Origin: a virus
Taxonomy: Duplodnaviria > Caudoviricetes
Reading direction: 5' to 3' (one strand)
DNA length: 64,000 bases
IMG/VR virus record: IMGVR_UViG_3300034111_000674
Location: 1-64,000 of that record
The translations under genes were made by a program, and so were the position numbers. Positions 27,478 to 51,424 of the stretch are shown here, piece by piece. Within the stretch, counting starts at the first letter, position 1. Every line of letters begins with the position of its first letter. The notes below the pieces were generated by a model, which was not told the DNA's origin, did not search any database, and saw only the letters and a program-made list of their open reading frames with translations.

Positions 27478-27510
27478 AAAATGCCATGCCACAAAGCATG
27501 GCATTTTTTT
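27478..27510 (+). terminator. Rho-independent terminator closing the tail-tip operon
   Basis: AAAATGCCATGC-CACAAA-GCATGGCATTTT-TTT. Confidence 0.88.
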
Positions 27511-27513
27511 GAC

Positions 27514-27542
27514 TTGAATAGTAATTCCTTTAGTGGTATAAT
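27514..27542 (+). promoter_or_regulatory. Sigma70 promoter heading cassette A
   Basis: TTGAAT (27514-27519), 17 bp spacer, TGg-TATAAT (27537-27542). Confidence 0.8.
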
Positions 27543-27586
27543 AAACCCAAAATTGGTAATACTACAAATTTTAGGAGCAACCCCAA

Positions 27587-27949
27587 ATGGCAACAACATT
27601 ATACTTTGTACAAGCTGATACACTACCACAGATAAAATTAACTTTATCTGACGAGATATCGAACTCGCCAAAGGATTTAACAGGAAAACAGGTAAGTCTA
27701 CACGCCAAACCAGCAACTGGTTCTGGTACAGCATTTTCACGGCCTGCAGTGTGGAACTCAGGAACAGAAACCGCGGATAGAAGTGCAGGAATATGCTATA
27801 TTAAGTGGCTGGCTGGTGATTTAGACAGGCCCGCTGGCGATTATGTTGCTGAAATAGAAATCTACGATGGTACTGTAAATCCGCCTACGCGCGAAACTAT
27901 TTATGAAATGTTAAAACTAGTGATCAGAGAAGATATTGCGGATATTTAA
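27587..27949 (+). CDS. BppU N-terminal-like / fibre adaptor protein
   Basis: VQADTLPQIKLTL...DLTG...GDYVAEIEI pattern of BppU-N / p132-type Ig-like adaptors. Confidence 0.65.
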   Translation: MATTLYFVQADTLPQIKLTLSDEISNSPKDLTGKQVSLHAKPATGSGTAFSRPAVWNSGTETADRSAGICYIKWLAGDLDRPAGDYVAEIEIYDGTVNPPTRETIYEMLKLVIREDIADI

Positions 27950-27995: not shown

Positions 27996-28208
27996 ATGGC
28001 TGAAAGTACAGCTAGCTTAGTTTCCTGTATAAAAGCAAACATCGTTAAAGTTTCACAACTAGCTGCAAATGCCACTATTAATCAACAGAGAACAAAAATA
28101 TTAAATATAGTTGATACAAGTAAAACTAAAGCAACTATAGTTACTAGTCGAGTCATAGCAAACGTAGAATTATTAGGCAGTAGCAGTGTTGTGTTAATAT
28201 ACTGGTAG
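27996..28208 (+). CDS. Small hypothetical protein (beta-strand rich)
   Basis: 70 aa with a GGGAGG RBS; shares SKTKA with a segment of the downstream giant ORF. Confidence 0.6.
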   Translation: MAESTASLVSCIKANIVKVSQLAANATINQQRTKILNIVDTSKTKATIVTSRVIANVELLGSSSVVLIYW

Positions 28209-28217: not shown

Positions 28218-31200
28218 ATGTTGCTCACTTTATTTAAAGGTGATGGAGCAGGTCTGGGAGTTGTAAACGGCAACTTATCGGCCACAGAGTCTGGATCAGA
28301 TGTTGGCGCTATAACGGCTAAACTTTTGGTCAAAGGTTCGAGCATCACCACAGAGACTGGATCAGATACTATAGCTATGATAGTTAAGGTATCTGTTAAA
28401 GCCTCAATCAGTGCCACAGAAACTGAATCAGATATTGCAGCTATAACGGGCAAGATACTTGTTGGCGGATCGATTAGTGCCACAGAAACTGAATCAGATA
28501 TTGCAGCTATAACGGGCAATACAGGTACTAGCGGATCGATTAGTGCCACCGAAACTGAATCAGACATTGCAGTTATAACAGGCAAGATACTTGTTGGCGG
28601 ATCCATCAGTGCCACAGAAACTGAATCAGATATTGCAGCTATAACGGGCAAGATACTTGTTGGCGGATCCATCAGTGCCACAGAAACTGAATCAGATATT
28701 GCAGCTATAACAGGCAAGATACTTGTTGGCGGATCCATCAGTGCCACAGAAACTGAATCAGATATTGCAGCTATAACGGGCAATACAGGTACTAGCGGAT
28801 CGATTAGTGCCACAGAAACTGAATCAGACATTGCAGCTATAACAGGCAAGATACTTGTTGGCGGATCCATCAGTGCCACAGAAACTGAATCAGATATTGC
28901 AGCTATAACGGGCAATACAGGTACTAGCGGATCGATTAGTGCCACCGAAACTGAATCAGACATTGCAGCTATAACAGGCAAGATACTTGTTGGCGGATCC
29001 ATCAGTGCCACAGAAACTGAACAAGACATTTTTGCTGGGTCTGTTTCAACTGCTCCAGCTATAGAAGTTATTAAACAATATGGAAGAACAGCTGCAACCT
29101 ATACATTGGGCGTTTTTCTGTATGATGAAAAAATATTAATAACAGCAGAACCGCTGTCTAGTTTAAGTGTTGCTATTACATACGTATCTAAAACTAAGGC
29201 ATCTTCCATCTATCACCCAGACAAAGCCACTGCTGAAATCATTAGTCCAAACACCGCACTTGACGTATATTTTACTACTACAAAATTATCAGAAATACTT
29301 ACGTACGGTAAAATTGATTCGGTAGCTGCAGATGGAATATTTCTGCCAGAGCTTGAGAGAATACCTGTAGAAGTGGTACAATTCTCAGACAGCCTGTTTA
29401 GAGTAACTTTTAGAGATATTGAAGAAGAGTCAGAGATTTTAGAAATCTATGAAACTTTCTTAGAAAAACCGTTAACAGATACCTATACAACAGAAGATTA
29501 TCTTGATACACAAACTGACTACTACAGAGATCAAGTAGATTTCACCAGTATATCTTCAGATATACTAATTAATATGTTGTACGATAATTATTTATCTGAT
29601 CAGTACAGCACTGTAGATCAGTTGTCTAATACTACAGTTAAATCTTTAGAAGATCAGTACAGTATCTCAGATAGTTTTACTTATGTTAATATAACAGGAG
29701 TTATTGATCAGTTTGTAACACAAGACTTATTAACTACCGAGTACACTAAAGTTGTAATAGATCAGTACAATATATCAGACATAGTATCAACACAATTAAG
29801 TTACTTCAAAGATTTTGCAGATGAATACAATGTATCAGATTTAGTATCTAACAACCCACAAAAAGTAGTAGAAGATAGTTATAGTATAACTGACAATACA
29901 ATTTATTCGATAGAAAAAATAGTACTCGATCCAGCCAGTATATCTGACAATTTATCACGAATAGTAGATTTTAATCCTAGCATAATAGATCAACTAAATC
30001 TTTCTGATAATATTGGTGAAACCCAAATTGACGACGGCACAACCTTTAAATATTCAAAAGACGAAACCGATCAGTATTTTATATCAGACATTCAATACTC
30101 TTTAATAACAAAACCTGTAATTGACCAATACAACATTGCAGACCAAGTATTTAGCGATATTGCAAAAATTGTAGCCGATCAGTACAATATTTCAGATAGT
30201 CTAAATAGATCGTTAGATTTTTACAGAGATCAAACAGATCAAAGTAATATACTAGATATTCAATATTCTTTGATAGCTAAACAAGAATCAGAAAGTACAC
30301 AATTTACAGAAAGTAATATTACCAGTGTAAACAAAATAGTTCAAGAGCAAACAAATATTCAAGAAATAGTAGATAAGCAATTAGACAAACTATCTATAGA
30401 TTATTTTAATATTGGTAGCTCAATATCTACACAAAAAGATTTTTTCAGAGATTTTTCCGAAACCAACAACATATCGGATATAGCAAGACAGCTTGTAAGT
30501 AAATCTACACAAGAAGAGTTTAATGTATCAGATACTTATGTGTCCGTCATTAACTTTCTTAGACAGCCTGTTGAAAACCCTGTAATTTCTGATCAACTAG
30601 TCTCAACTACTGATTTTCTAAGAAATCCTACAGATGTTGGTAGAATATCTGACAATTTAAACTACATCGCCAATTTTTTCAGAGCACCAGAAGACCCTGT
30701 AAATCTATTAGAAATAGTTAATTATAGTGTAGTAAAAGTATTAACAGATACGTACAGCTTGGAAGAAGTAATATCCAATCAAGTAGGTAAGCCACTGACT
30801 GATAGTTATCAGATATCTGATATCACTAGCACTGTGGTTGAGTATACTCGAGAATTTTTGGAAGGATTAAATCTAAGTGACGACATTAACGGCGCTGCCA
30901 CAGACGACGATCAAAATGTTATTTACTTTAAAAACCCTTCTGACGAGTACAATGCCTCCGACGAACTATACAGCAGTATAAATAAAGCCGTACAAGAACA
31001 GTATAGTATACTAGACATTATTTTTAGCAGTGTTTTAAAACCAGTACAAGATCAATATAGTGTATCTGATATAGTTTTTACCGAAACTAATTATATTAGG
31101 GTGCAAGAAGATATAACAAATGTAGATGATAGCAGATTTTATTCATACAACAAAGTCAATATTGATGAATATAATTTATCAGATACTTTAGTTAATAGCT

Positions 31201-34200
31201 TAAATAAAGTATCAGTAGATCAGTTTAATATTGCAGAAATAGTACAAACTAACTTTACTAAAACTATAGTTCCAGATATTTTTAGTATATCAGACACAAC
31301 TTCAGTACAAGCTGATTTTTATAGAAATCCAACAGATCCAACTAATTTGGGCGATCTAGTTGCCAGGTTAGTAGGTAAACCTTTAGAAGAAATAACTAAT
31401 TTAACAGATATATTATCAGTTACTGTTAACTACTTTAGGTCATTTATTGACGATACTAATATATCCGATTCTCCAATACTAATAGTTAATTACAATCCTG
31501 AGTACGATGATTTATTGGTAGGTACAGATTTTACTGAATTTGAAGCTGAATTTTATAGAGAACCTGAAGAACCTTTAAACATAATTGATACTTCACAATA
31601 TGATCTGTCCAAGCTACTATTAGATGAGTATAATATTAGTGATTTCTATATAAGTACATACAATAAATTTGTAACAGATCAGTCAAATGTATCGGATAAC
31701 TATACTAGAGTAGTATCGTTTAGTAGAGAGTTTACTGACAATGTAGGTGTTGCCGACAATATTAATAGTGGAAGCTATATAGGTGATACTGGGTATTTTA
31801 ACTATTCTAAATTTTTAGTAGAGCAAACTACTGTTCAAGAGCTTATAGTAAGTGATATTGACAAACCACTACCTGTGAATCAATATAACATAAATGACGC
31901 CATCTCTAATGATATTAGTAAAATCCCAGAAGATCTAACAAATATATCGGACTTAACAGCAATTCAAGCAGAGTTTATTAGAACACCAGAAGATATTAAC
32001 AATATATCTGAAAGTGCAATTATAGAGTACAGTTCAGAATTGTCAGATAGCTATGTTATATCAGAGGATATAATAAACACTGTTGAAAAGCCATTCTTAG
32101 ACTACTACTACACAACAGATGTAACTGTATATGTGGTAGACAAAGTTACTGAAGATATCACAGAAATACAAGAAGTAGCAGAAACTCAAGTAGATTTTTA
32201 CAGGGATCCACTTGATGAAAACAATATTATTGATATTTTTGAAAGTGTATTTGACAAACCAACAGAAGAATCTCTAAACAGTATCGACGTTATATCTTTT
32301 GCCACAGACTACTTTAGAGAAGCTTTAGACGACACTAGCTTATCTGACGATACATTAATTATTAACAGTTTTATAAGAGATATTATTGATATCAATACGC
32401 TTTCTGACGAACTGTTGTCAGTTATTGATTATATTAGAGAATTCGACGACGTCTTAGACCTACAGGAAATAGTAGAAAATACTGTATTAAAAGAACTAGA
32501 AGAAAGTTTTAATCTAGGAGATGAGGCTCTTTTATTAACAGAAGTTAATGTAACGGACAACTATGAGCTCTCGGATACGCTAGACACTGTTATATCATAT
32601 GATAGAGAGTTATTAGAAGAGTTAAATCTAAGTGATGACATAGACGGCTCAGCCTTAGACGACGATCAAAACTTTAGTTACTTTAAAAATCTATCAGATA
32701 CTTATAGTTTACTAGACAGTACCCTCAGTTCAGTAGATAAAGGTTTATCAGAGGAGTATTATACTCTATCCGACAATCTTCAATATGATATTAATAAAGC
32801 ACCTTTAGATTACTACAATATATCAGAAACTTTTGACCGAGCAGCTGAATTCTATAGAGACTACAGCGATCAATTTAATGCAACAGACTTATTAGTATCT
32901 GCTACAGACTTCTATAGAAATCCAGAGGAAACAGCATCCTTAACGGATAATACTATCTATAGTACGTTAAAAGTAGTAATTGACTCAAATAACATATCAG
33001 AAGATATAGCAAGTAGCATAAATAAACTACTATCAGAACAAACAAATATTTTAGATACTGCTGCTACCAGCTTGTCTTTTATAAGAGATATAAGTGACAA
33101 CATATTCTTTACAGATGATATAAATGGTTCGTCTGTTGATGATAGTCAAAATTTTACATACTTTAAAAATATTACTGATCGAAATGATGTAGTTGACAGT
33201 TTTACAACCAGTACAATTAAAGCTATTCAAGATTCGTACACTTTATTTGAGGACTTACAAACCGCAGTAGAAAAGTCGATATCAGATACATACAGACTAT
33301 CTGATACTTTATTAACATATGTGGTATCCATCAGAGAGTTTACAGATTCTTACTATATTGCAGAATTAATTAGTGTAGGCAGTAACAAAGTATTTACTGA
33401 CCAATACACTTTAAGTGATACTACAACTCAAACTGTAAATTATAGCAGACTAGTAACAGATCAATCTAATATATTCGATCAATTTGACAGGCAGGTCAAC
33501 TATGTACCTAGCCATACAGATCAGTATAGGGTATTAGATAACGTATCCGTAAATGTTGAATTTAATAAATCTTACGAAGACCTATACTCTGCTGTAGATA
33601 TACTATCCTTGGCTTTAAACAGTGTTACAATTGACCAGTACAATATAAATGATACTATTGCACTATCCTCCAATAAGACAGTACTAGATCTAACCAATAT
33701 TTCTGATAGCCTTGACACTGCTACATCATTTGCAAGAACTATATTAGATCAGATAAACTTTTCTGACAATATTGGTGGTGCTACAATTAGTGATGGTTCA
33801 AATTTCAAGTATTCTAAAAATGAAATTGATCAATATTTTGTACAGGAATTACTAGCGTATCAAGTTAACAAAGTAGTCTCAGATCAATTTAACACTACTG
33901 ATATAACAGCACTTGATACTAATAAATCCGTTATAGATGTATATTCTGTAACTGATTCTATAAGCAGACAAACTGACTACATCAGAAATATATTAGATCA
34001 GCAATATGTGAGCGACACGGTTGATACTCTGTTAGTAGTTATCAGGGAGTTTATCGACTTACCACTCGTTCAAGACATTCCTTTAATTGACTTTAACGTT
34101 GGAATTTCCGATAGTTATAATACAGTTGATGAGATATCTAATACTGTTAACAAACGATTAAATGATCAAACTATTACAACAGATAGTTTGAATACTGTAT

Positions 34201-36596
34201 TAAGTTTTGATAGAAACTTTACTGATCAGATAAATACTTCTGATAATCTGAGCGGATCTTCTGTAGACGACAACCAAAATTTCATTTACTTTAAAGATAT
34301 ACAAGATCAAACTAGCACTATAGATTACACGGCTATTAGTACTGTAAATTACCTTTATGACCAACAAGAGGTTGCTGAAGATATATCACTATTTGCTGGC
34401 AAAACAATAAGTGATGTTTACGTAGCCAGTGACGTTTTAGAAAGAACAGCCGAGTACTACAGAAGTCTTACAGATCAATTTAGTACTTCAGATACTGTAT
34501 CTACTCAATCAGCATTTTTTAGATCGCTGTCTGATAACTACAGTTTGTTTGATGTACTAGTAACTGCGACAACATCAGCGCAGGCAGATCAGTTTATAGT
34601 AAATGACTCGTCTGAATTTTCTGCATTAAAATCTTTAACAGATCAAGGAAGTTTGTCTGATTCGTTTACCAGAGTTTTAGAGTACAATCAATCCTTAATT
34701 GATCAGATAAATTTTTCTGACAATATTGGTGGAGCTACAATTAGTGATGGGTCAAACTTCAAGTATTCAAAAAATGAAACTGATCAATATCTAATATTAG
34801 AAATAATATCTAATGATGCAAATAAGGGAGTTTTAGATAGTCAAGATATACTAGATTATCAAGAGCTATTTGTAAATAAAGGACCACTCGATCAAAGTAG
34901 TCTATTAGATAATATTTTAATAGATTCAGAATTTGACAGAGTTTTTACTGATCAAGCGGGATCATCCGACAGTATCGGTTTTCAAAATAATTTTTATAGA
35001 CTTTTTGACGACCAGTACAGTATACTGGATTCTATAACTACTAGTAGCAATAAGCAGTCCTTGGATCAGCTAAATATAGAAGATGGTCAGTACTACACGG
35101 TATTTAAAGAATTATTAGATACAAGTATTTTATCTGACGACCTATCTATTGATTCGGAGTTTTACAGAAGTTTACTGGATGTACCTAGAGTAACTCAGCT
35201 GATTTCCTTACAAAATAATTTTAATAGAGATTTTGAAGACCAATACACTGTATCAGATTTTGTAAATGTTGTTCCTAACAAAGCAACTATTGAAGAAATA
35301 GGTCTTTTAGATACTCAGTATTTTGATATATTAAGAGCACCCACAGATACTCTTAATATAGAAGAATTAACAGAAATATCCTACAACATAGGCTTTTTTG
35401 ATCAGGTATATGCGTTTGAGAAATTCAGCGAAAAAGATGCGTACGAATTTGAGTTTAATAAAATTAGTGACTACTTGTTCAACGATATTAGTAAAGTTCA
35501 AACAGATCAAACCAGCCTGTCTGATTTTGTACTTGCAGATGTCACTTTTGACAGAGAAATTACAGAAACTGCAAGCATAGAAGAGACTATATCCCTGAGA
35601 CCAAGAATAAGGCTACCAGATTTACTTGTAAGTAAAATATCTTGGGCAATGTATACTCAAGATTATACAGGTGGTTATTTTGCAGAAATGTATCTTGAGG
35701 GTACTGGCAGAGAGTATGACGGCACTTATTATAATCTCTACGAGACGTATAAAGATAAGTATAATATTACTGATGTAGCTTCTTTAAGTACACTCTATAA
35801 TAGGCCGGCTACAGAAAACACAAGTGTATCTGAAGATTTATTTATTGATAACAATGTATCGCCTATAGAAAATCCACTGAACTTTAATGATAATTTATAT
35901 AATGTTATAACCAAAAACATTTTTGATGAAATTAATCTAAGTGAAAATCTAATAACGCTGGGTACAGGTGACGCATCGCCGGCTGATTCATACGGTATTT
36001 CTGACAACCTGTATTATAACACTGAAAAAACTATAGTGGACCAATACAGTATATCAGACTCTATATTGCTTGCTTATATTTCTGGTGTACCACTAGAGGA
36101 TATTATAAGTTTGACAGATTCCTTGTTTAATACAATAAACAAGAATTTGATAGATCAGCTAAACATAGCTGATGAGATATCAACACAAAGTGATAGCAGT
36201 ACCACTTCGACAGACAGTTATAATATTGTAGACACTGTTTATCATACAACTGATAAACTATACGAAGATATTACTAATACTACAGATACCTATTACAGCG
36301 AAATAGTTAAAAGTATATTAGACCAATTAAATATATCTGATTTTACAACAATAGAAAAATCTGAGAATGCTGCTCCACAGGATAGTTCTAGTATTACAGA
36401 TACAACATATTGCATTGTAGACAAGAGTATATTAGATCAATATAATATAGTAGATTCTTTATTAATCAACTGTATTTTTGACAGACAGATAGTAGATACT
36501 ACAAGTGTTACATCTGATGGAATTATTTCCAACCAAAACTATGTTGCCGACTACTTTCAAGAAGGCTATATAGGAACATCATTGACATTTACATAA
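28218..36596 (+). CDS. Giant acidic repeat protein (2792 aa), probable virion appendage scaffold
   Basis: Uninterrupted ORF. Twelve 22-aa repeats at the N-terminus, then ~2400 aa of degenerate ~19-aa D-x-Y/F-x-I/V-S-D repeats, punctuated by 8 node motifs and 2 Q-x-Y...YF-x-E-x-Y motifs. Function inferred. Confidence 0.7.
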   Translation: MLLTLFKGDGAGLGVVNGNLSATESGSDVGAITAKLLVKGSSITTETGSDTIAMIVKVSVKASISATETESDIAAITGKILVGGSISATETESDIAAITGNTGTSGSISATETESDIAVITGKILVGGSISATETESDIAAITGKILVGGSISATETESDIAAITGKILVGGSISATETESDIAAITGNTGTSGSISATETESDIAAITGKILVGGSISATETESDIAAITGNTGTSGSISATETESDIAAITGKILVGGSISATETEQDIFAGSVSTAPAIEVIKQYGRTAATYTLGVFLYDEKILITAEPLSSLSVAITYVSKTKASSIYHPDKATAEIISPNTALDVYFTTTKLSEILTYGKIDSVAADGIFLPELERIPVEVVQFSDSLFRVTFRDIEEESEILEIYETFLEKPLTDTYTTEDYLDTQTDYYRDQVDFTSISSDILINMLYDNYLSDQYSTVDQLSNTTVKSLEDQYSISDSFTYVNITGVIDQFVTQDLLTTEYTKVVIDQYNISDIVSTQLSYFKDFADEYNVSDLVSNNPQKVVEDSYSITDNTIYSIEKIVLDPASISDNLSRIVDFNPSIIDQLNLSDNIGETQIDDGTTFKYSKDETDQYFISDIQYSLITKPVIDQYNIADQVFSDIAKIVADQYNISDSLNRSLDFYRDQTDQSNILDIQYSLIAKQESESTQFTESNITSVNKIVQEQTNIQEIVDKQLDKLSIDYFNIGSSISTQKDFFRDFSETNNISDIARQLVSKSTQEEFNVSDTYVSVINFLRQPVENPVISDQLVSTTDFLRNPTDVGRISDNLNYIANFFRAPEDPVNLLEIVNYSVVKVLTDTYSLEEVISNQVGKPLTDSYQISDITSTVVEYTREFLEGLNLSDDINGAATDDDQNVIYFKNPSDEYNASDELYSSINKAVQEQYSILDIIFSSVLKPVQDQYSVSDIVFTETNYIRVQEDITNVDDSRFYSYNKVNIDEYNLSDTLVNSLNKVSVDQFNIAEIVQTNFTKTIVPDIFSISDTTSVQADFYRNPTDPTNLGDLVARLVGKPLEEITNLTDILSVTVNYFRSFIDDTNISDSPILIVNYNPEYDDLLVGTDFTEFEAEFYREPEEPLNIIDTSQYDLSKLLLDEYNISDFYISTYNKFVTDQSNVSDNYTRVVSFSREFTDNVGVADNINSGSYIGDTGYFNYSKFLVEQTTVQELIVSDIDKPLPVNQYNINDAISNDISKIPEDLTNISDLTAIQAEFIRTPEDINNISESAIIEYSSELSDSYVISEDIINTVEKPFLDYYYTTDVTVYVVDKVTEDITEIQEVAETQVDFYRDPLDENNIIDIFESVFDKPTEESLNSIDVISFATDYFREALDDTSLSDDTLIINSFIRDIIDINTLSDELLSVIDYIREFDDVLDLQEIVENTVLKELEESFNLGDEALLLTEVNVTDNYELSDTLDTVISYDRELLEELNLSDDIDGSALDDDQNFSYFKNLSDTYSLLDSTLSSVDKGLSEEYYTLSDNLQYDINKAPLDYYNISETFDRAAEFYRDYSDQFNATDLLVSATDFYRNPEETASLTDNTIYSTLKVVIDSNNISEDIASSINKLLSEQTNILDTAATSLSFIRDISDNIFFTDDINGSSVDDSQNFTYFKNITDRNDVVDSFTTSTIKAIQDSYTLFEDLQTAVEKSISDTYRLSDTLLTYVVSIREFTDSYYIAELISVGSNKVFTDQYTLSDTTTQTVNYSRLVTDQSNIFDQFDRQVNYVPSHTDQYRVLDNVSVNVEFNKSYEDLYSAVDILSLALNSVTIDQYNINDTIALSSNKTVLDLTNISDSLDTATSFARTILDQINFSDNIGGATISDGSNFKYSKNEIDQYFVQELLAYQVNKVVSDQFNTTDITALDTNKSVIDVYSVTDSISRQTDYIRNILDQQYVSDTVDTLLVVIREFIDLPLVQDIPLIDFNVGISDSYNTVDEISNTVNKRLNDQTITTDSLNTVLSFDRNFTDQINTSDNLSGSSVDDNQNFIYFKDIQDQTSTIDYTAISTVNYLYDQQEVAEDISLFAGKTISDVYVASDVLERTAEYYRSLTDQFSTSDTVSTQSAFFRSLSDNYSLFDVLVTATTSAQADQFIVNDSSEFSALKSLTDQGSLSDSFTRVLEYNQSLIDQINFSDNIGGATISDGSNFKYSKNETDQYLILEIISNDANKGVLDSQDILDYQELFVNKGPLDQSSLLDNILIDSEFDRVFTDQAGSSDSIGFQNNFYRLFDDQYSILDSITTSSNKQSLDQLNIEDGQYYTVFKELLDTSILSDDLSIDSEFYRSLLDVPRVTQLISLQNNFNRDFEDQYTVSDFVNVVPNKATIEEIGLLDTQYFDILRAPTDTLNIEELTEISYNIGFFDQVYAFEKFSEKDAYEFEFNKISDYLFNDISKVQTDQTSLSDFVLADVTFDREITETASIEETISLRPRIRLPDLLVSKISWAMYTQDYTGGYFAEMYLEGTGREYDGTYYNLYETYKDKYNITDVASLSTLYNRPATENTSVSEDLFIDNNVSPIENPLNFNDNLYNVITKNIFDEINLSENLITLGTGDASPADSYGISDNLYYNTEKTIVDQYSISDSILLAYISGVPLEDIISLTDSLFNTINKNLIDQLNIADEISTQSDSSTTSTDSYNIVDTVYHTTDKLYEDITNTTDTYYSEIVKSILDQLNISDFTTIEKSENAAPQDSSSITDTTYCIVDKSILDQYNIVDSLLINCIFDRQIVDTTSVTSDGIISNQNYVADYFQEGYIGTSLTFT
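28401..29027 (+). repeat. 66-bp (22-aa) tandem array with two alternating unit types
   Basis: GSISATETESDIAAITG followed by KILVG (A) or NTGTS (B). Order A B A A A B A B A, then a terminal partial unit; two degenerate units lie upstream from 28269. Confidence 0.97.
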
Positions 36597-37105: not shown

Positions 37106-37142
37106 ATTGCAAAATATTTAATAAATAACACGAGCAGGATTT

Positions 37143-44700: not shown

Positions 44701-44941
44701 CCATTTAGCCTTGGTAAGATCATCTGGCGTAGTAACGCTGTATGTCAATGGTACTGCAAATGGAAGCAGCGCATCTGCTACTGTTGCTGGAGATTTACCC
44801 CACGGTAATTTGGTAATTGGTGGTTATTATAGTGCTAGCTATTTGTATCAAGGATATATAGATGACTTGCGTATTACCCGTGGAGTTGCCCGCTACACTG
44901 CGAACTTCACTCCACCTAGTGCACCCCACTACTTGAGGTAA
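38756..44941 (+). CDS. Multi-LamG / concanavalin A-like lectin domain protein (9 domains), putative adhesin
   Basis: Nine repeats of S-x-x-F-D/N-G...DFTVE-x-W...W-x-H-I/V-A-x-x-R...GYI-S/D-N/D-x-R. Confidence 0.85.
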   Translation: MSKQYPGGYITKLASTPNIISAPGIWTLDQAAQYISDDSWPGLPSDPNFNNVTLLLNGNNIQGRSNNCFIDSSPSKMAFTRSGNTTQGSFNPHGPLWSNYFDGNNYIYYDVTTSNAPGTDNFSVECFVNVTNNTENRGICQFSATSTGLQGSSSATLMMQLYNGNWWYHAGNESRGPYGTVVPNRWYHVIITRFNSTTYLIVDGTALHAFGDSTNYSTARYVAVGGGYASGYLGKCYISNFRYIKGFAPYIGVSYSRPTSPLTNVQGTQLLTCNSNRTIDTSLNNVPVTRSGTTLVKRLSPFNPPSKYETSNSDIGWSNFFNINTDHLQIPYSSQFAFDTGDFTVECWVNFNSRSTTFSPIIMLGTGVDAIPVQRLASWALYADNSANTLVFNRYTPTNIAVSFSWTPVLNRWYHIAVSRSGTSFRAFIDGAQIGTTQTSTTNYSAVNTSDPLVISRFIASGGVVYGFNGYISNVRVLKGTAVYTSNFLPSTTPLTAITNTALLTCNSSTIVDNSTNSFSITRNGLIPVEKFSPFHSSINENTVLTRSVYFNGASVITASNTVTNFGTGDFTVECWFRTNVIDTSSDTIISNYNNASGGSIGVYINRGTSGGIQVYQGTGNTLVLNAPSVITATNTWYHIAVARSSGVSRLFLNGILMTTATDTSNYGIDNSVVAIGGASVNGVYGSFFQGLISNLRVVKGTALYTNFTPPTAPLTAITNTQLLTSQSNRFVDNSSNAFTVTSTGDTSVQPFSQFAPTASWNATINGGSAYFDGSGDYISAPASGFALPGDFTVEAWVYIAGNSPLDGASQRSAVIASTMQTSNPVSGFTFYIGGNSAITGIFLAAEMRVGGIVTGYSTSVSIPQGVWNHIAFVRTGTTLTYYLNGINVGSSSGVSQNIPVNNALTIGGQTVPSYTRDLNGYISNLRIVSGTGVYTGNFTPPTALLTAITNTSLLLNFANAGIYNAVSSNVIETVGNAQVSTVQSKWGGSSIAFDGSGDRLVSAPSPLNVLDSGNFTIEFWLYPNNTASAYRALVSSENYPSTTGGWTLYQNGTSIEFWITGSLILGSGSLAITASTWQHLALCRASGTLRLFINGTSIASVSNSTSLTGRQIWIGDNNSSGGGLYFYNGYIDDLRITHGVARYITNFTAPTQAFSNVASGDQFLSNVVLLLADNGTNSSQNNTFIDSSTNNFTITRVGNTTQGTFSPFSQTGWSNYFDGTGDYLSVPSNSAIVVGSSDFTVEAWIYLTTTGPWTGYIFGKRAGSGSLGIILGFEAASVPRLLASVDGSNWNVLINSSISVTPQTWTHIAATRSGNSWRLFVNGQQGATATVAGTVVDSGANLTIGANAANGTSVFPRGYISNFRLVKGTALYTSSFIPSQTPLTPLTPVTNTALLTCQTNVIQDRSSNNFSITNNNNAVIDLNSPFTETSSETALLSEIGSLYFDGAGDSLIIQDNLALEPENSNLTWEMWINTTVTAQYSTLFSRYASSFGAGSWTLLLNNTASAGNVAMWFSDFSGSTPLLLSSGVNVCDARWHHIAVVRNGSSWVLYVDGVSRATATWSGTVSNITPPVLIGADSVNGRNYIGYISNLRIVKGTALYTANFIPPTSSLTAVAGTSLLTCQNNLIVDNSSNGFNITPTSNVRADPFNPFTSSTLVPYNKFASGGSASFDGTGDWLSSSFNPSLNLGLLPFTFETWVYPNSVTGIVGLYAVSAGAGTVPKFIVHLDAGTPKVHYNGLTGGSNIYNNATTAIPVGSWSHIAFVRALDGKWTWFVNGIPSGTGTNTTDITFTSQPSYIGYGGEATFTPLNGYLSSMRLLANTTLYTTAFIPPRSPVVSTDLNTRLSMNFTNAGIVDSSCNTNIEVFDGAHISTVQSRWGGSSLYFDSSSDRLLFLNSPEYSFGTGNFTIEFWFNSQDMSGSTQRGFLQTSQAAGGLHASYTSGIAIYQGINGSNTPTTGGIAANVLGAVIGSSATFSPNTWHHLALVRSSGVVTLYVNGTANGSSASATVAGDLPHGNLVIGGYYSASYLYQGYIDDLRITRGVARYTANFTPPSAPHYLR

Positions 44942-44945
44942 AATA

Positions 44946-45320
44946 ATGGCACATTTTGCTAATTTAGACAACAACAATACAGTAGTTAATGTTATAGTTG
45001 TAAATAACGAAGAACTACTAGAGGACGGTATAGAATCAGAAACCAAAGGTATTGCTTTTTGCATGTCTCTGTTTCCAGACACAAACTGGAAACAAACATC
45101 TTATAACGGCACATTTCGTAAACATTATGCAAATCCTGGATTTACATATAATAACGAATTAGACGCTTTTATACCCCCTAAACCATATAGTGATTGGATA
45201 TTGGATACAAAAACGTGTACTTGGGTAGCACCGCTACCCTATCCAGATGACGGTGTATGGTATATATGGAGTACTGAACAAGCAACTTGGGTCACAGTTC
45301 AATCGTATTTTCAGGAGTGA
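44946..45320 (+). CDS. Small protein usually accompanying Gly-rich/LamG fibre genes
   Basis: MAHFANLD-x-N-N-x-V...WKQTSYN...RKHYA-x-x-G-x-x-Y...DAFIPPKPY-x-x-W pattern. Confidence 0.6.
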   Translation: MAHFANLDNNNTVVNVIVVNNEELLEDGIESETKGIAFCMSLFPDTNWKQTSYNGTFRKHYANPGFTYNNELDAFIPPKPYSDWILDTKTCTWVAPLPYPDDGVWYIWSTEQATWVTVQSYFQE

Positions 45321-45326
45321 TCTGTT

Positions 45327-45360
45327 AAAAATACCCGGCCCACAAAGCTGGGTATTTTTT
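45327..45360 (+). terminator. Rho-independent terminator closing cassette A
   Basis: AAAAATACCCGGC-CCACAAA-GCTGGGTATTTTT-T. Confidence 0.88.
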
Positions 45361-45363
45361 CGC

Positions 45364-45392
45364 TTGACCAAAGTTTGCCTTCATGATATAAT
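45364..45392 (+). promoter_or_regulatory. Sigma70 promoter heading cassette B
   Basis: TTGACC (45364-45369), 17 bp spacer, TGa-TATAAT (45387-45392). Confidence 0.85.
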
Positions 45393-45448: not shown

Positions 45449-46033
45449 ATGGCTGGTCCAACAAAACTGAATCTTAAAATATATCAGGGCAGTACCTTTC
45501 GTGAGACTATTCGTTGGGAAAGTCCTGTAAAGGTTTATGCCCCAATCACCATGGTTAGTAAAAGTGCCCCCATGGTAATAACTGCACAAAATCACGGCTT
45601 ACCTAATGGGTGGAGATTAAAAATCAGTGGTGTTGGGGGCATGAAAGAAGCTAATACAACGGACTGGGTATACGCTAGTGATGTTACTGCTAATACTGTT
45701 GCTATAAACAGCGCTAATTCCTTGGCATATACTACATTTACCAGCGGTGGCGTTTTAGAGTACAATCAGCCAATTGATCTAACAGGATATACTGCACGAA
45801 TGCAAATCCGGGAAAAGATTACAAGTGAAACTGTACTGGAAACATTGACGACTGAAAACGGTAAAATCTTAATAGATACGTCTCAGAAAACAATCTCTCT
45901 GGTGTTAAGTGCCGAAATGACAGCGGCGTATGCATGGAAGTCAGGAGTTTACTCTCTAGAAATGGTAAAAGACGGTGTTGTTACAGGACTTATTTATGGT
46001 TCAGTATCTGTGGAACGTGAGGTAACTCGATGA
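45449..46033 (+). CDS. T5 p132/LtfC-like fibre adaptor with an inserted small beta-barrel domain
   Basis: LKIYQGSTF...PIDLTGYTARMQIR...GVYSLEM...GSVSVEREVTR matches the p132/BppU pattern. Residues ~31-105 (ITAQNHGL...ISGVGGM) form an FCCH-like insert. Confidence 0.65.
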   Translation: MAGPTKLNLKIYQGSTFRETIRWESPVKVYAPITMVSKSAPMVITAQNHGLPNGWRLKISGVGGMKEANTTDWVYASDVTANTVAINSANSLAYTTFTSGGVLEYNQPIDLTGYTARMQIREKITSETVLETLTTENGKILIDTSQKTISLVLSAEMTAAYAWKSGVYSLEMVKDGVVTGLIYGSVSVEREVTR

Positions 46034-46425
46034 AATTGAGCACAGAATTAAGAAATCAAATGTTGGCGCAATACGAATCTTTTTTAGGTCCAAGTCCTGT
46101 TATAGAGATTAGAACAGGAACTGCTCCAGCAACATGCGAAGATACTGCAACAGGCACTAATTTAGTTTCCATAACACTACCAACAGATTGGTTTACTACA
46201 CCTATTACTGGCACAGTATCGAAACAAGGCACATGGTCAGCAACATCGCAAGCTCAAGGAACAGCCGGCCACTACCGATTCAGATCTAATAGTGGAATAG
46301 TGCATGAACAAGGAACCATTACCACAGCTGGTGGTGGGGGAGACTTGGAAATAGATAGTATCAATATAGCGTTAAGTCAAATTGTCCAAATAGTCACTTG
46401 GACACGAACACAAGGAGGCCAATAA
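46030..46425 (+). CDS. Small beta-rich structural subunit, paralogue 1
   Basis: 131 aa: RNQML N-helix, IEIRTG, GTAGHYR, DLEIDSINIA...QIV. Confidence 0.6.
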   Translation: MKLSTELRNQMLAQYESFLGPSPVIEIRTGTAPATCEDTATGTNLVSITLPTDWFTTPITGTVSKQGTWSATSQAQGTAGHYRFRSNSGIVHEQGTITTAGGGGDLEIDSINIALSQIVQIVTWTRTQGGQ

Positions 46426-46796
46426 TGGCAGTAGTATATACAACAGCGGTAAAGAACGCCCGCTTGAACGCAGTTACAACCGCCATCGGAACCACTGGTG
46501 TTCTAGAAATTGGCACAACCGGTATGGCCTTAGTATTGGCCACCATCAACTTGGGCAATCCAGCCGCTCCTGCTGCAGCGAGTGGTGTATTGACCTTTAC
46601 CATGCCTCAAAGCGACAACGCAGCTGATGCCACCGGCACAGCAGCTGAGGCCAGAATCCGTACTGCGTCGGGCGGTACTGATGTGGTAACTGGGTTGACA
46701 GTGGGCACCAGTGCTACTGACATTGTGTTAGACAATCTCTCAATTGCCACAGGTCAGCAGGTTACCATCAATAGTGCAACTATTACACACGCATAA
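46425..46796 (+). CDS. Small beta-rich structural subunit, paralogue 2
   Basis: Start moved to ATG 46425 (TAATG overlap, GGAGG RBS). KNARL N-helix, LEIG, GTAAEAR, DIVLDNLSIA...QQV parallel ORF 46030. Confidence 0.65.
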   Translation: MAVVYTTAVKNARLNAVTTAIGTTGVLEIGTTGMALVLATINLGNPAAPAAASGVLTFTMPQSDNAADATGTAAEARIRTASGGTDVVTGLTVGTSATDIVLDNLSIATGQQVTINSATITHA

Positions 46797-46798: not shown

Positions 46799-47224
46799 AT
46801 GGCTGATAATCTAGGTTATACCCCCGGCAGCGGGGCAACCGTTGCCACAGAAAATTCTGGAGGGGTCCACCACCAACGCGTGTTGATGGAAACCGCTGTG
46901 GAGGGTGTTCCAACCGACGTTTCTGCTGCCTCACCCATGCCTGTTGCGTCAAGTCGCAGCGATGACTTGTTGGTGATGTTGAGCCGCATTGTCAAACTGT
47001 TGGAAAGTAATGCAACGGTTGACAGTGCACAACGTCAGCGTGTGGTTGTTGATAGTGGTGCGATTACTGCCTCTATTGCCTCCGCTCAGACCTTGGGAAC
47101 CGTAACAACGGTTTCATCCGTGACCAACATGGTATCAAATGCAGGTATGGATCGCGAACAGTACATCAACATTGCAAAACAGACGTACAGTCAAGGCATA
47201 CGTTCTGGTTTAACTTTCCAGTGA
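46799..47224 (+). CDS. Fibre/linker-like hypothetical protein
   Basis: 141 aa with a GGVHHQRV N-terminal motif, a helical middle and TVTTVSSVTN strand repeats. Confidence 0.55.
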   Translation: MADNLGYTPGSGATVATENSGGVHHQRVLMETAVEGVPTDVSAASPMPVASSRSDDLLVMLSRIVKLLESNATVDSAQRQRVVVDSGAITASIASAQTLGTVTTVSSVTNMVSNAGMDREQYINIAKQTYSQGIRSGLTFQ

Positions 47225-47232: not shown

Positions 47233-49875
47233 ATGCCTGCTTTAACAAAAAATACACTTTCAACTCAAGTCGACCTTCCAACATGGGAGTGGACTCGCTT
47301 TGCACCGGCTGTTTCTAGTGCACTGAGTTCTACCTGTGCGCCTGATAACATGGGGTTCCTGCGAACTGAACATGGCAGATACATCTATTATTTAATCTCT
47401 GCAACTCAATTTGTTCGATATGATACCTGGACAGATATGTTCCAGGGTTTGACTGCTCCACCCGTAGCTGGTTTTAACGTAAGCACAATGAAGTTTGCGG
47501 GAGCATATGGACCCGAGGGAAAGACTATTTCTGCTACTTCAAACACAATTACAGTTCCAGCGATTTCGATGGCGTCCATGCTGGGTTACGACATTGTGAT
47601 TGTCAGCGGTACAGGTGCAGGACAACGCAGAAAGATTACTGCTGTTGCAGAACCCACAATCCATGACAGCGGTGTGGTTACAGCAATTGCTAACGCAGCT
47701 GGTGGTATCACAATAACTGATACTTTGAAAACTTGGGGTTTCAATCAGTGGGCTGGTTATACTCTACGTGTTTCCGGCAACAGTGGTGTTGGTCAGTACC
47801 GCCGTATCTTGAGCAATACTGCAACAGTGCTAACCATTGCTGATACTACCCAAATGAACATGCGGTTGAATAACCCTGCAATCTTTGCTCCTACAATTGC
47901 GAGCACGGCAGGATCCCAATCTGCATATGTTATTGAATCGCAAGCTTTAACAGTGAACTCACCTTGGACTGTGACACCAGATAGCACATCAGTGTTCCGT
48001 ATTCAGTCTGGTCAGATCTTGTTGGTATCACCTAACGCAGCAACTGCAACTGCGCCTTTCGTGTTAACACAGCTGTATGATATCTTGACCGATACTTGGT
48101 ATGTACTACCAACAATGACCAACACCCTGTTGGCTGCTGCCACCGACTTGGCACTAGAGCGTATGAGTGAAAACGCTTCTCTTTGGGAACGAGGTACAGC
48201 AACAGGTGGTACAACTACTACGTTGATCGATACTACACAAGGTGTAGATCACGCAGCTTGGAGTGTCAATCAATGGGCCGGTTACTGGGTATACATTGAA
48301 TCTGGAACAGGTGTCGGTCAGATCCGTCAAGTACTGAGCAACACTGCTACCACTTTGACTTGGGCAACTGCTGGCACAGCTCCTGATGATACTTCTCAAT
48401 ACTTGATTTTGGGCTTTGATGCAGGCACTGCAACAAGCGCTACTTCTACAACCCTAACAGACAGTACAGTAGCTTGGCCTGTAAACCGTTGGTCAAATTA
48501 CGCTGTGCGTATCTTGTCAGGCACTGGTGCGGGTCAAGTTGTGGCTATTGCAAGCAACACTGCTACAGCCTTGACAATTGTTGGTAACTGGGGAGTAACT
48601 CCTGACAGTACGTCTGTGTATGCCATTCAAGGTGACCCAGACAAGTTTTACCTATTTGCCGGTGGTATTGCTGGTACGCCAATCTTAAATTACAGCTCTC
48701 AAACCCAAACTTTTGGTCGTCAGCAAGATTGGGGTATTGCCAGAAATGCCGCAGCAACTGTGGGTGGATATCAGCCTGTTGCAATTGCTTCACTTGCTAA
48801 TGCAACAACCACGGCAACGGTTACAACTGCACATCCTCATCAATTCAAGGTTGGTGAATTAGTTACGGTCCGCGGTGCAACAGACGCAAACTTTAACGTA
48901 ACCAACGTTGCAATTGCCACTGTACCTTCAGCGACTACGTTTACTTATACAATGGCAGGAACTCCTGCTGCAACTACAATTCCTGGTGCTCAGTCTACTA
49001 CAACACTCACAGACGGTTCTAAGAGTTGGACAGTTAACCAGTGGGCGGGTTTTACCTGCCACATGTACGCAGCAACTCCAACTGCTGCATCTGGTTCAAC
49101 TACAGGTCAAGTATTGCGAATTGTAAGTAACACTGCCACAACCTTAACATTTGCTGTAGCAGGTACCGCACCCACAAACGGTATTAGTCGATACTCTATC
49201 TGCACTAGTTCAGCAATTGGAGCAACTGACTCTGGTGTTGCAACGGGTACACACAGCACAACAACACTGCAAGATACCAACAAAACTTGGGCTGTAAACA
49301 TTCATGCCGGTAAGAGAGCTCGTATCTTAACAGGTCCTGGCGGTCCAGCCGAGGCTATTATTAGTAGCAATACAGCTAATACTTTGACATTCTCAGCTGC
49401 ACTGGGTGCTGCACCTGTGAGCGCTCAAACGGGTTACGCAATCATTGAACCTACTGTAAGAGGTCTTGGTACTACAGCAAATTGGGCGTTTGGTACTAGT
49501 GTTCCAGCCCTCCGTGGTCGGTACACGTACATTACTCGTGGCGGTGGTACTGCTGGCTTCGATCGTTGGGACGTTACCACAGATCGTGTTAACTTGATGA
49601 CCACTTCGCCACTTACAGAAACACTGACGACCGGTACTATGGCAGCGTATGATGGCAGAGATCGCATCTACTTCCACAAAGACAACACTCAACGTGTTTA
49701 TAGCTTAAACGTAGTAACTGCAAACGTTAATGGTGCTTCAATGTATCCGTATGTTGCTCCTACAGCAATCATTGGCAACCGTATGGAGATTATTACAACA
49801 AAAGACGGCTTGAAGTACATCTGGCTCAACCGAGCATCTTTTGCAGAGTGCTTCCGTTGCTTGGCTTTCTGGTAA
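47233..49875 (+). CDS. Beta-propeller-like adhesin with nested inserted repeat domains
   Basis: Blade-like segments at both ends (RYIYYL...FVRYD; GFDRWD, RIYFHKD, KYIWLNR). About six ~70-aa W-x-x-N-x-W-x-G...G-x-G-Q...SNTAT-x-LT repeats plus one FCCH-like domain. Confidence 0.6.
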   Translation: MPALTKNTLSTQVDLPTWEWTRFAPAVSSALSSTCAPDNMGFLRTEHGRYIYYLISATQFVRYDTWTDMFQGLTAPPVAGFNVSTMKFAGAYGPEGKTISATSNTITVPAISMASMLGYDIVIVSGTGAGQRRKITAVAEPTIHDSGVVTAIANAAGGITITDTLKTWGFNQWAGYTLRVSGNSGVGQYRRILSNTATVLTIADTTQMNMRLNNPAIFAPTIASTAGSQSAYVIESQALTVNSPWTVTPDSTSVFRIQSGQILLVSPNAATATAPFVLTQLYDILTDTWYVLPTMTNTLLAAATDLALERMSENASLWERGTATGGTTTTLIDTTQGVDHAAWSVNQWAGYWVYIESGTGVGQIRQVLSNTATTLTWATAGTAPDDTSQYLILGFDAGTATSATSTTLTDSTVAWPVNRWSNYAVRILSGTGAGQVVAIASNTATALTIVGNWGVTPDSTSVYAIQGDPDKFYLFAGGIAGTPILNYSSQTQTFGRQQDWGIARNAAATVGGYQPVAIASLANATTTATVTTAHPHQFKVGELVTVRGATDANFNVTNVAIATVPSATTFTYTMAGTPAATTIPGAQSTTTLTDGSKSWTVNQWAGFTCHMYAATPTAASGSTTGQVLRIVSNTATTLTFAVAGTAPTNGISRYSICTSSAIGATDSGVATGTHSTTTLQDTNKTWAVNIHAGKRARILTGPGGPAEAIISSNTANTLTFSAALGAAPVSAQTGYAIIEPTVRGLGTTANWAFGTSVPALRGRYTYITRGGGTAGFDRWDVTTDRVNLMTTSPLTETLTTGTMAAYDGRDRIYFHKDNTQRVYSLNVVTANVNGASMYPYVAPTAIIGNRMEIITTKDGLKYIWLNRASFAECFRCLAFW

Positions 49876-49885
49876 GGGAGGTTGT

Positions 49886-50053
49886 ATGTTATTACAAGAC
49901 ATTATACAAATCCTTAATAACAGGTTGGAGTCCTTGAAAGCTAAAAAGAACATAGCGATCGCCTCCGGAGAACTGGAACAGGTCTACAATTTAGAACTTG
50001 AAATTTCCGAAACAACTTCTACATTAGATCAACTCAAGACATTGATGGTGTAA
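49886..50053 (+). CDS. Small coiled-coil protein (55 aa)
   Basis: ATG 49886 after GGGAGG; heptad pattern LNNRLESL...LEISETTSTLDQL. Confidence 0.65.
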   Translation: MLLQDIIQILNNRLESLKAKKNIAIASGELEQVYNLELEISETTSTLDQLKTLMV

Positions 50054-50056
50054 TAT

Positions 50057-51424
50057 ATGTTGCTAACCCTGCTCCAATCCGGCGGGGCAGGTCCTGGGTT
50101 TGTCTCTGGCAATCTCATAGCTTCAGAAACTGGTTTAGACTCTTGCGTCATAACAGGAGTACTACCAGTTTCTGGTAGTCTGGCCTCCTCAGAGACCGGC
50201 AATGATATATCTTCCACAACTGGTAAGTTGACAGTACGTGGTAACTTAAACACTTCAGAAACCGGAAGCGATAGTTTTGCAGGAGCCAGTTCGGCACCTA
50301 GCGGTATAACCGGTAGTTTGACAGCCAGCGAGACTGGTACGGACACAGCAGTTTTAACAGCCAAAGCACTGGTTCGTGGCTCACTAGCGGTCAGCGAAAC
50401 TGGTACGGACACAGCAGTTTTAACAGCCAAAGTACTGGTTCGTGGTTCACTAGCAGTCAGTGAGACTGGGTCTGACGTATCAAGTAGCTCTGGCAAAGTA
50501 TTGGTAAAAGGTTCTCTGGCTCGTAGTGAGAGTGGAACTGATACTTTTAGTGCTACTAGTACTGCACCAAGTGCCCGAACTGGTACTCTACAAGCCGCAG
50601 AAACTGGTACAGATACTACAACAATCGTTGCTAAAAACATAGTACGTGGCTCATTAGCAGTCAGTGAAACTGGTACAGATACCTCTGCCCTAACAGGTAA
50701 GTTGGTAACACGTGGTAGCCTGAGTGTTAGTGAAACTGGAACGGATACCTCAACCTCAACGGGTAAGGTGGTCGTAAAAGGCTCACTCAGCCGTAGCGAA
50801 AACCCAGACACTACAGCTATTTCCGGCAAGGTATTGGTAAGGGGGTCACTGTCCGGCAGCGAGGGTTCAGACACTGCCCTCTTGGTAGGTAAAGTACTAG
50901 TACAAGGAACCACTGGCCTACAGGAAATAGGATTCGATAGTGCTCAAGGCATAGCAAAACTCAGAGTGTTGGGTACCTTGGGCAGCACAGAGTCTGGTTC
51001 TGATTCTGCCAATATTATAGCAAAACTAGTTAATAGAGGTAGTTTTGCAAGCAGTGAAACTGGGCTTGATACTGCCGAGGTCGTAGCAAAATTAGTCAAC
51101 AGGGCTAATTCTTCACAAGTTATTGACTTCTTGTACAGCTCTGCAGCTGCTACTATTGTGAGCGGTAACAGTACCAATGTAATACCAATAACGGGATTTG
51201 CTAGTGCGTTAAGAATTGCACTGGCCTTGAAAGGTAATGATACATTTGTACAGAGTATTGACAGTACTACATTTATACAAAATATTGACAGTACTACAGT
51301 TATACAAAATATTGACAGTACTACATTTATACAAAATATTGACAGTACTACATTTATTGCTTACTCTGTATCCGATCCTATATTTATTACCTCTGAAGAG
51401 GTTGGGATTACTGTTTACGAGTAA
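50057..51424 (+). CDS. 22-aa repeat protein, paralogue of the N-terminus of ORF 28218
   Basis: MLLTL...GAG-x-G-x-V-x-GNL start, 15 repeats of G-S/T-L-x-x-S-E-T-G-x-D (50108-51103), and a C-terminal 9-aa repeat. Confidence 0.7.
   Translation: MLLTLLQSGGAGPGFVSGNLIASETGLDSCVITGVLPVSGSLASSETGNDISSTTGKLTVRGNLNTSETGSDSFAGASSAPSGITGSLTASETGTDTAVLTAKALVRGSLAVSETGTDTAVLTAKVLVRGSLAVSETGSDVSSSSGKVLVKGSLARSESGTDTFSATSTAPSARTGTLQAAETGTDTTTIVAKNIVRGSLAVSETGTDTSALTGKLVTRGSLSVSETGTDTSTSTGKVVVKGSLSRSENPDTTAISGKVLVRGSLSGSEGSDTALLVGKVLVQGTTGLQEIGFDSAQGIAKLRVLGTLGSTESGSDSANIIAKLVNRGSFASSETGLDTAEVVAKLVNRANSSQVIDFLYSSAAATIVSGNSTNVIPITGFASALRIALALKGNDTFVQSIDSTTFIQNIDSTTVIQNIDSTTFIQNIDSTTFIAYSVSDPIFITSEEVGITVYE
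51257..51357 (+). repeat. 27-bp tandem repeat (IDSTTFIQN), about 3.7 copies
   Basis: ATTGACAGTACTACA(T/G)TTATACAAAAT starting at 51257, 51284, 51311 and 51338 (partial). Confidence 0.95.

Follow-up and report, generated by a model that had tools for sequence, protein, structure and literature searches.

Two parallel gene cassettes in a phage genome from IMG/VR (record IMGVR_UViG_3300034111_000674) probably encode accessory virion fibres of the "beads-on-a-rope" kind, chain-like fibres in which dimers of a small protein (the beads) would sit along one long extended protein (the rope). We analysed the first 64 kb of this 74,242-bp genome (positions 1 to 64,000, hereafter the window), and genes and their proteins are named by the position in the window at which the gene starts. 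Each cassette holds a candidate collar gene (27587 in cassette A, 45449 in cassette B), a gene for a long repeat protein (28218 and 50057, of 2792 and 455 amino acids (aa)), and one or two genes for small beta-rich proteins (36611 in cassette A, 46030 and 46425 in cassette B). The layout agrees with an original prediction made from the letters of the DNA, whose open reading frames (ORFs) were all present on the + strand at the coordinates it gave, and the MLLTL starts and the repeats that it had noticed were found in both long proteins. Its view of two parallel modules, in which an adaptor and a repeat protein are accompanied by one or two small beta proteins, stands; its names BppU and p132 for the adaptors, its adhesin 47233 and its closed cassette B do not, as described below.

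The small and the repeat proteins go together across genomes. This co-occurrence had been set beforehand as a test, and it proved to be tight and to come in family-specific pairs. Two sets of IMG/VR loci were compared, 74 with a homologue of 46425 and 80 with a homologue of 36611. A BLAST match to 50057 was present in 50 of the 74 loci, and 48 of the 74 encoded a protein with three or more 22-aa units, which as a rule lay one or two genes downstream; no 22-aa-repeat protein was seen in any of the 80 loci of the other set. These 80 loci share a conserved order of a 27587-like gene (~110–140 aa), a protein of variable length, the bead gene (~150 aa) and a long fibre. An 18–20-aa period was detected in 41 of the 67 distinct genes directly upstream of the 36611 homologue, as compared to about 3% of other ORFs. 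Most of the periodic upstream genes overlap the bead gene or sit a few nucleotides from it (the gap between 28218 and 36611 is 14 nt), and a punctuation motif and a C-terminal YFAEDYVG are common to many of the variable proteins. Since the co-occurrence is family-specific in both sets, each repeat family travels with one bead family.

It was also possible to recognise the arrangement in named phages. Aeromonas phage phiA008 has the same gene set, and in T4-like loci a 36611-type gene follows a gp7-like wedge protein, which is the position of T4 gp8. Curvibacter phage P26059A repeats the layout of cassette B, with its gp5 bead gene two genes from a 22-aa-repeat protein, and so does cyanophage Pam2, which has an immunoglobulin-like (Ig-like) protein, two small beta proteins and homologues of 46799 and 47233, together with a 539-aa protein that starts MLLLLL and contains ~14 different 22-aa repeats. 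Collar, rope and bead genes are clustered in one late operon here, and likewise in KPP25 and GP4. A related-locus search with the single 50057 protein gave no confirmed relative.

Fibres of this kind have been described by cryo-electron microscopy (cryo-EM) in a few phages since 2023, in podophages and myophages only and with 2–11 dimers, and the architecture itself is not new. The original prediction knew of no structural description of such a gene set; structures exist for GP4 (2023), Bas63 (2025), phi812 (2026) and A1002 (November 2026). The Pseudomonas podophage A1002 (Kochitakasuvirus; PDB 26DK, 44NX) has a collar, gp33, a nozzle-rope protein, gp39, and fibre dimers of gp40 and gp41; gp33 is a double jelly-roll of 197 aa that forms a 15-fold ring on the adaptor, and 11 gp40/gp41 dimers are beta-augmented on the rope domain of gp39, which is ~268 aa and ~300 Å long (PMC13730344). 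Fiber I of the Ralstonia podophage GP4 (PDB 8JOU) combines a separately encoded rope with an Ig-like collar and five gp80 dimers. Bas63 has two dimers on its rope, which extends the collar protein by a short N-terminal stretch (PMC12609058), and in phi812 there are six arm-segment dimers, with linkers of an arm scaffold in the gaps between them, while loops of the scaffold dock receptor-binding trimers (PMC13433997). The authors of the latter study liken the arm segment to T4 gp8. What is new in the genome studied here is the siphovirus setting, the presence of two modules, the strictly periodic free-standing candidate ropes and one extreme chimeric rope among them, about ten times as long as those of related phages.

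The small proteins belong with the families that cryo-EM has shown as dimers strung on an extended chain (A1002, GP4, Bas63 and phi812), which supports the earlier view of them as subunits. The protein 46030 matched the A1002 fibre-dimer protein gp40 (PDB 44nx_B, E = 2e-4) and, in pairwise BLASTP, KPP25 ORF006 (E = 5e-8), and it falls into phrog_3758 with E = 1e-23. The second small protein of cassette B, 46425, falls into the same family (E = 1e-12) and is 26% identical to 46030 and 74% identical to P26059A gp5. Its predicted start at ATG 46425 was kept because the homologues begin there, and TTG 46398 is only the first possible start seen by the ORF tool.

The family of 36611 comprises 9,564 clusters at 50% identity, and its members, among the matches listed, are nearly all 141–165 aa. 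AlphaFold2 (AF2) gave a confident model of 36611, with a predicted local distance difference test (pLDDT) of 85 and a predicted template modelling score (pTM) of 0.81. By VIA scores the top match of this model was the HFTV1 hub domain (Z 11.2); the arm segments of A511 (gp105, PDB chain 6hhk_A) and phi812 (9fko_A) both scored Z 8.2, GP4 Fiber I (8jou_a) Z 7.7 with 110 residues aligned, and the whiskers of Bas63 (9mt4_L) and Sf14 (9c39_K) Z 6.2 and 6.0, as compared to 4.5 or less for unrelated rows of the comparison. As modelled, 36611 has the fold of GP4 Fiber I, of the Bas63 and Sf14 whiskers and of the phi812/A511 arm segment. In pairwise BLASTP it also matched the KPP25 equivalent of gp41 (E = 3e-6).

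The collar candidates differ in how far they can be followed. Residues 7–183 of 45449 matched chain M of PDB 26DK with E = 8e-32, and this chain was taken as the A1002 collar gp33, both being 197 aa; homologues of 45449 occur in 60 phage records, including KPP25 ORF087 and MD8. The proposed adaptor role is supported here, 45449 being a true homologue of a collar protein. The labels attached to that role lack sequence support: neither 27587 (at E up to 5) nor 45449 (at E up to 0.01) matched BppU_N (PF10651) in Pfam, and phmmer of both against the PDB returned no T5 chain at E up to 1, which speaks to p132 at the level of sequence. A BLAST homologue of 27587 lies two genes upstream of the 36611 homologue in 25 of the 80 loci, and 27587 is a candidate for the ring-forming collar of cassette A. 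It had no Pfam match at E up to 5 and no PDB sequence match, and its family profile gave only chance-level Ig-like matches.

Both long proteins carry 22-aa units of the type G-S-x-x-x-S-E-T-G-x-D, of which a repeat hidden Markov model (HMM) found 12 copies in 28218 and 14 in 50057, and residues 1–275 of 28218 are 40% identical to 50057 (E = 9e-44). The identity between 50057 and P26059A gp7 is 35%. The remaining ~2400 residues of 28218 have an acidic period of 18/20 aa with the consensus FNKVVTDQYNISDTISSSV, in which 92 units were recognised by HMM and ~125 are implied by the length. At least five punctuation motifs, DDINGxxxDDDQNxxYFK, are found in this region, and the protein ends in the motif YFQEGYIG (window 36500–36596). 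Residues 277–480 align to the N-terminus of the rope of a relative, L026, with E = 4e-8. To judge from its sequence, 28218 is a chimera in which a head of the cassette-B type with 22-aa repeats has been joined near residue 276 to a typical cassette-A rope.

The period, the punctuation motif and the C-terminal motif are all shared with short ropes of relatives, which vary from 113 to 983 aa (about ninefold, with a fixed bead size) as compared to 2792 aa for 28218, and in two relatives with the two-module layout the ropes are only ~300 and ~470 aa. The repeated punctuation motif suggests that whole rope units have been concatenated in 28218. The 18/20-aa region is degenerate at the DNA level, and an assembly artefact is therefore an unlikely cause of its length. 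In 28218, the 22-aa units are encoded by a 66-bp repeat present 9.3 times (window 28407–29021, 87–93% identity) with a 132-bp higher order. This array is much more uniform than the units of 50057, which implies a recent expansion, and the number of copies may be affected by the assembly. The one family matched by 28218 was phrog_12240, and no wedge family was matched.

A motif of the YFAEDYVG type ends the 18-aa-repeat ropes, as seen in loci L006, L018, L029 and L042, and the same aromatic and acidic motif was also observed in gp7-like wedge proteins before the bead gene (L027, L048); YFAEDYVG and YFQEGYIG may be a shared terminal docking element. A search for further giant homologues of 28218 returned the protein itself and two weak matches only. 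The only other giant among these weak relatives, P0122 on a 24.7-kb ENA contig, is 2089 aa and 21% identical to 28218, and lies among archaeal-type genes (CdvA, Thy1, V4R) with a 186-aa gene before it and a 181-aa gene after it; it was not used as support. At the end of 50057, a 27-bp tandem repeat (window 51241–51357, 4.3 copies, 94% identity) encodes the four FIQNIDSTT units, and the same repeat yields three promoter-like TTGACA-17-AATATT matches just upstream of a holin-like gene.

Among the closest known systems is A1002. Its collar gp33 has a sequence homologue in 45449, its gp40 is in one family with 46030 and 46425, and 36611 bears a resemblance to its gp41; an A1002 rope carries two kinds of bead, as is predicted for 28218, and its ~24 aa of rope per dimer is close to the 18–22-aa repeats found here. 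A1002 is, however, a podophage, with a rope fused to half of the nozzle, no obvious sequence repeats and 11 dimers per fibre, whereas the genome studied here is that of a siphovirus with two separate modules and free-standing, strictly periodic candidate ropes of up to 2792 aa. GP4 is alike in its separately encoded rope, the small Ig-like collar that holds it, a bead fold that matches the 36611 model and the clustering of the genes, but it has only five dimers, and its fibres fold up onto the capsid. No sequence similarity to 50057 or 28218 was detectable in GP4. A 325-aa virion-associated protein of GP4 just downstream of gp80 (L161:8548-9525, minus strand) has ~10 Gly/Ala-rich units of ~20 aa; it is a rope candidate by its look and had no PDB sequence match.

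The baseplate arm of phi812 and A511 (scaffold gp117, dimers of gp118/gp105; gp7 and gp8 in T4) gave the best small-protein fold matches to 36611. Linkers of the phi812 scaffold beta-augment neighbouring dimers, and the T4-like environmental loci place a 36611-type gene after the gp7-like wedge gene. In these phages the scaffold opens with a wedge (trifurcation) domain that is part of a contractile-tail baseplate, and it bears six dimers, whereas 28218 has no wedge-family match and stands with siphovirus tail genes, without a baseplate of that kind. The collar-whisker structure of the Escherichia myophages Bas63 and Sf14 (PMC12609058; PDB 9MT4, 9C39) differs in being placed at the neck, in having two dimers and in its proposed bracing role.

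We propose that a small jelly-roll or Ig-like protein (45449, and probably also 27587) forms a ring on the virion, and that this ring holds the MLLTL head of a long single-chain rope (50057 or 28218). Each repeat of the rope would then lend beta-strands to a dimer of small beta-sandwich beads and so complete its sheets, the 22-aa repeats pairing with beads of the gp40 type (46030, 46425) and the acidic 18/20-aa repeats with the bead of the gp8/gp41 type (36611). Like the A1002 rope, the chimeric 2792-aa rope would carry both kinds of bead, and it could have room for roughly 60–125 dimers. The lectin-rich 38756, the Gly-rich 37895 and the fibre-anchor 37143 would be separate distal binding parts, and 46799 and 47233 would be conserved core parts of the module in cassette B. 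The synteny, the homologies and the pairing by family are shown, as is the fold of the modelled 36611, and what is inferred is that rope and bead touch, how many beads there are, where the fibre is attached and that it helps to bind the host surface.

Several observations weigh against this model. The evidence for contact between rope and bead is indirect, the repeat proteins being taken as ropes from their genomic context. The match of 36611 to gp41 was weak in a database-wide search (E 0.057) and was lost when the family profile was searched, which found the HFTV1 hub domain instead and GP4 gp80 only at E 0.45. By sequence, 50057 matched no rope of any solved structure in the PDB, and repeats are not obvious in the KPP25 counterpart of the A1002 rope. 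The alignment of 27587 to the 45449 family by hhalign has a probability of 75% over just 27 columns round a shared LTG motif, and more than 100 dimers on each rope would need hundreds to thousands of bead copies per virion. Finally, the AF2 monomer of 50057 was an all-beta stack of hairpins, one for each repeat, with middling scores (pLDDT 62, pTM 0.52) and a weak likeness to beta-solenoids. The repeat proteins could thus be self-folding beta-solenoid or beta-hairpin shafts, i.e. ordinary fibres. In that case the small proteins would be parts of a collar or whisker, or else adaptors or chaperones, with a binding site elsewhere, such as a short collar rope like that of Bas63. A period of 18 or 22 aa is typical of the turns of beta-helices, and the weak resemblances of the 50057 model were to RsaA, curli CsgA and a beta-helical antifreeze protein; a rope without sequence repeats, as in A1002 judged by KPP25, also fits such shafts. 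The confidence of the model is, however, only 60–74 per repeat, and none of its fold matches was significant. Against such shafts, each repeat type travels with one bead family only. The rope gene overlaps the bead gene or lies right next to it, and its length varies about ninefold with a bead of constant size, and in phi812 and the T4-like loci the same bead fold adjoins a scaffold known to bind that fold. We regard self-folding shafts as unlikely. The earlier idea of small subunits placed along the repeat proteins is well supported by homology and synteny, although not proven.

It is also conceivable that the modules are short neck whiskers or head-tail braces, with a stabilising or sensing role, and not host-binding antennae, and that the giant acidic protein is something else, e.g. 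a polyanionic spacer or an ejected protein. In P26059A, the genes for the bead and the 22-aa-repeat protein do lie beside portal and head genes, and the A1002 gp33 ring and the Bas63 collar are at the neck, where the Bas63 whiskers touch capsid and sheath (PMC12609058). Here, both modules are found 3' of the tail-tip genes and beside lectin-rich proteins, and the authors of the A1002 and phi812 studies (PMC13730344, PMC13433997), as well as those of the GP4 study, discuss the chains as receptor-seeking or as carriers of receptor-binding proteins. As for the acidic protein, a role as DNA mimic or ejection protein was set aside, because its period, motifs and gene partners are those of the relatives' short ropes. 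Whiskers or braces are in our view quite unlikely, and fibres of beads on a rope are the preferred reading of both cassettes.

How far 28218 is decorated is a more tentative matter. It is possible, if doubtful, that beads cover its whole length, ~12 dimers of the gp40 type followed by 60–125 dimers of the 151-aa bead, with the punctuation motifs docking lectin proteins and the repeats acting as a code. On the spacing in A1002, 60–125 dimers would give a beaded filament of ~0.15–0.35 micrometres. Were this true, no earlier fibre of this kind would be known from a siphovirus, the punctuation motifs would be docking loops for lectin-bearing proteins, and the repeat sequence would be an addressable code for bead placement.

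The locus and its relatives suggest that the design is very common, given the size of the 36611 family, and that it occurs in long-tailed phages as well. They also suggest a sequence rule, with one repeat family per bead family and the number of repeats setting the rope length. Should this rule be valid, the sequence alone could suffice to recognise ropes and to predict how many beads they carry, and many "hypothetical" repeat proteins beside phrog_3758 and phrog_5417 genes could receive an annotation. For the maximum length of such a fibre, and for the sorting of two bead types on one chain, the 2792-aa chimeric rope would offer a natural test.

Table 1. Features of the two cassettes, with positions in the window, strand and basis of each assignment.
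Feature	Position	Strand	Basis
Terminator hairpin and sigma-70-like extended -10 promoter, opens cassette A	27478..27542	+	sequence
120-aa candidate Ig-like / single jelly-roll adaptor (collar), cassette A	27587..27949	+	synteny, hhalign
70-aa ORF, status uncertain	27996..28208	+	no homologue
28218 residues 1-275: MLLTL head and 12 x 22-aa repeats, cassette-B rope type	28218..29042	+	repeat HMM, BLAST
28218 residues 276-2792: proposed giant rope, ~125 acidic 18/20-aa units	29043..36596	+	repeat HMM, length
36611, 151-aa putative bead, type II (phrog_5417; predicted T4 gp8 / phi812 arm-segment / GP4 Fiber I fold)	36611..37066	+	AF2 model, BLASTP
11-bp hairpin directly 3' of bead gene 36611	37078..37110	+	read from sequence; short T-run
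113-aa protein, N-terminal anchor domain of relatives' long fibres (PLTNLELDANF motif)	37143..37484	+	synteny
130-aa protein	37494..37886	+	no matches
285-aa Gly_rich_2 protein	37895..38752	+	PF21722, E 7e-17
2061-aa protein, 9 LamG / ConA-like lectin domains	38756..44941	+	Laminin_G_3
124-aa conserved small protein, phrog_7759, closes cassette A	44946..45320	+	PHROG
Weak hairpin and strong extended -10 promoter, opens cassette B	45338..45392	+	sequence
194-aa collar protein, double jelly-roll, A1002 gp33 homologue	45449..46033	+	PDB match
46030, 131-aa putative bead, type I (phrog_3758; A1002 gp40 family)	46030..46425	+	PDB, PHROG, BLASTP
46425, 123-aa second putative type-I bead, distant paralogue of 46030	46425..46796	+	PHROG, BLAST
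141-aa conserved partner of the 880-aa protein	46799..47224	+	BLAST synteny
880-aa highly conserved protein, possible Kelch-like beta-propeller	47233..49875	+	homologue survey
50057, 455-aa candidate rope of cassette B: MLLTL head, ~14-17 x 22-aa repeats, C-terminal FIQNIDSTT x4	50057..51424	+	repeat HMM, BLAST

The remaining genes of cassette A include plausible binding parts in 37143, 37895 and 38756. An N-terminus of the 37143 type is found in the gene after the bead gene in 18 of the 80 related loci, often fused to a fibre of 870–1440 aa. The nine stretches of 38756 matched Laminin_G_3 with E = 4e-160, and it also matched PHROG baseplate-wedge and virion-structural families; it is likely a carbohydrate-binding distal protein. 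The first ~45 aa of 37895 and 38756 are alike (28% identity over 46 aa, E = 1e-4). Homologues of 44946 were observed a few genes after the bead gene in three related loci (L064, L065, L071). Neither Pfam, at loose thresholds too, nor PHROG gave a match for 37494, and Pfam at loose thresholds gave nothing for 37143, 27587, 46799 or 47233. The 70-aa ORF 27996 had no family match and no counterpart in the related loci.

In cassette B, 47233 had been described as an interchangeable adhesin. More than 2000 homologues were found, 60–93% identical and nearly fixed in length at 875–880 aa, which implies that it is not a swappable adhesin and fits a conserved part; we propose that it is a core or hub part of the module. 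For a gene of a fibre module, this degree of conservation is unusual. The Pam2 homologue of 47233, gp66, is 68% identical and lies directly downstream of gp65, which is 44% identical to 46799; further homologues of 46799 occur in L090, L095, L140 and L141. No Pfam, PHROG or PDB match was obtained for 47233, and it is possibly a Kelch-like beta-propeller, from a hint in the Atlas only; PDB sequence searches with 50057, 46799 and 27587 likewise gave nothing useful. Homologues of 47233 are also found on contigs of 140–190 kb, and the Pam2 copy is annotated as "flagellar hook-length control protein", which is probably a misannotation.

Both terminator-promoter pairs of the original prediction are real. 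The pair of cassette A is the strong one: a hairpin with a 12-bp stem and a T-run (27478–27507) is followed by a promoter, TTGAAT-17-TGnTATAAT (27514–27542), that matches at 10 of 12 positions with the TG present. The hairpin of cassette B is weak, with 5 bp (45338–45353), and its promoter, TTGACC-17-TGnTATAAT (45364–45392), matches at 11 of 12 positions, again with the TG. A 76-aa ORF (45247–45477) that overlaps this terminator, the promoter and the beginning of 45449 had no family match and probably does not represent a gene. The cassettes had been called self-contained, which is not the case for the transcription of cassette B: no terminator was found after 50057, and since the next strong one lies at 53670–53713, 3' of the lysis genes and phoH, the cassette is not closed at 51424.

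Family matches identify a late operon of siphovirus type, with large terminase, portal and a protease-capsid ORF, and the tail genes upstream of the cassettes include a head-tail adaptor, a tail terminator, a major tail protein and two chaperones. The protease-capsid ORF (658 aa, window 4124–6100) matched head-maturation-protease families in its N-terminal half and also major-head-protein families, and looks like a fusion of the two. No family identifies the 580-aa protein that is encoded where the distal tail protein would be expected; the tip protein has 1625 aa, with an S74 chaperone domain at its end. Compared by megablast with the phage collection, 20 kb of the cassettes and of the head region had no match. 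Both cassettes lie between the tail genes and a holin-like gene, a lysozyme gene and phoH. The tape measure protein has 2413 aa (window 10717–17958) and, at ~0.15 nm of tail per tape-measure residue, it implies a tail of ~360 nm (~0.36 micrometres), which is about the same as the largest length estimate for the beaded rope.

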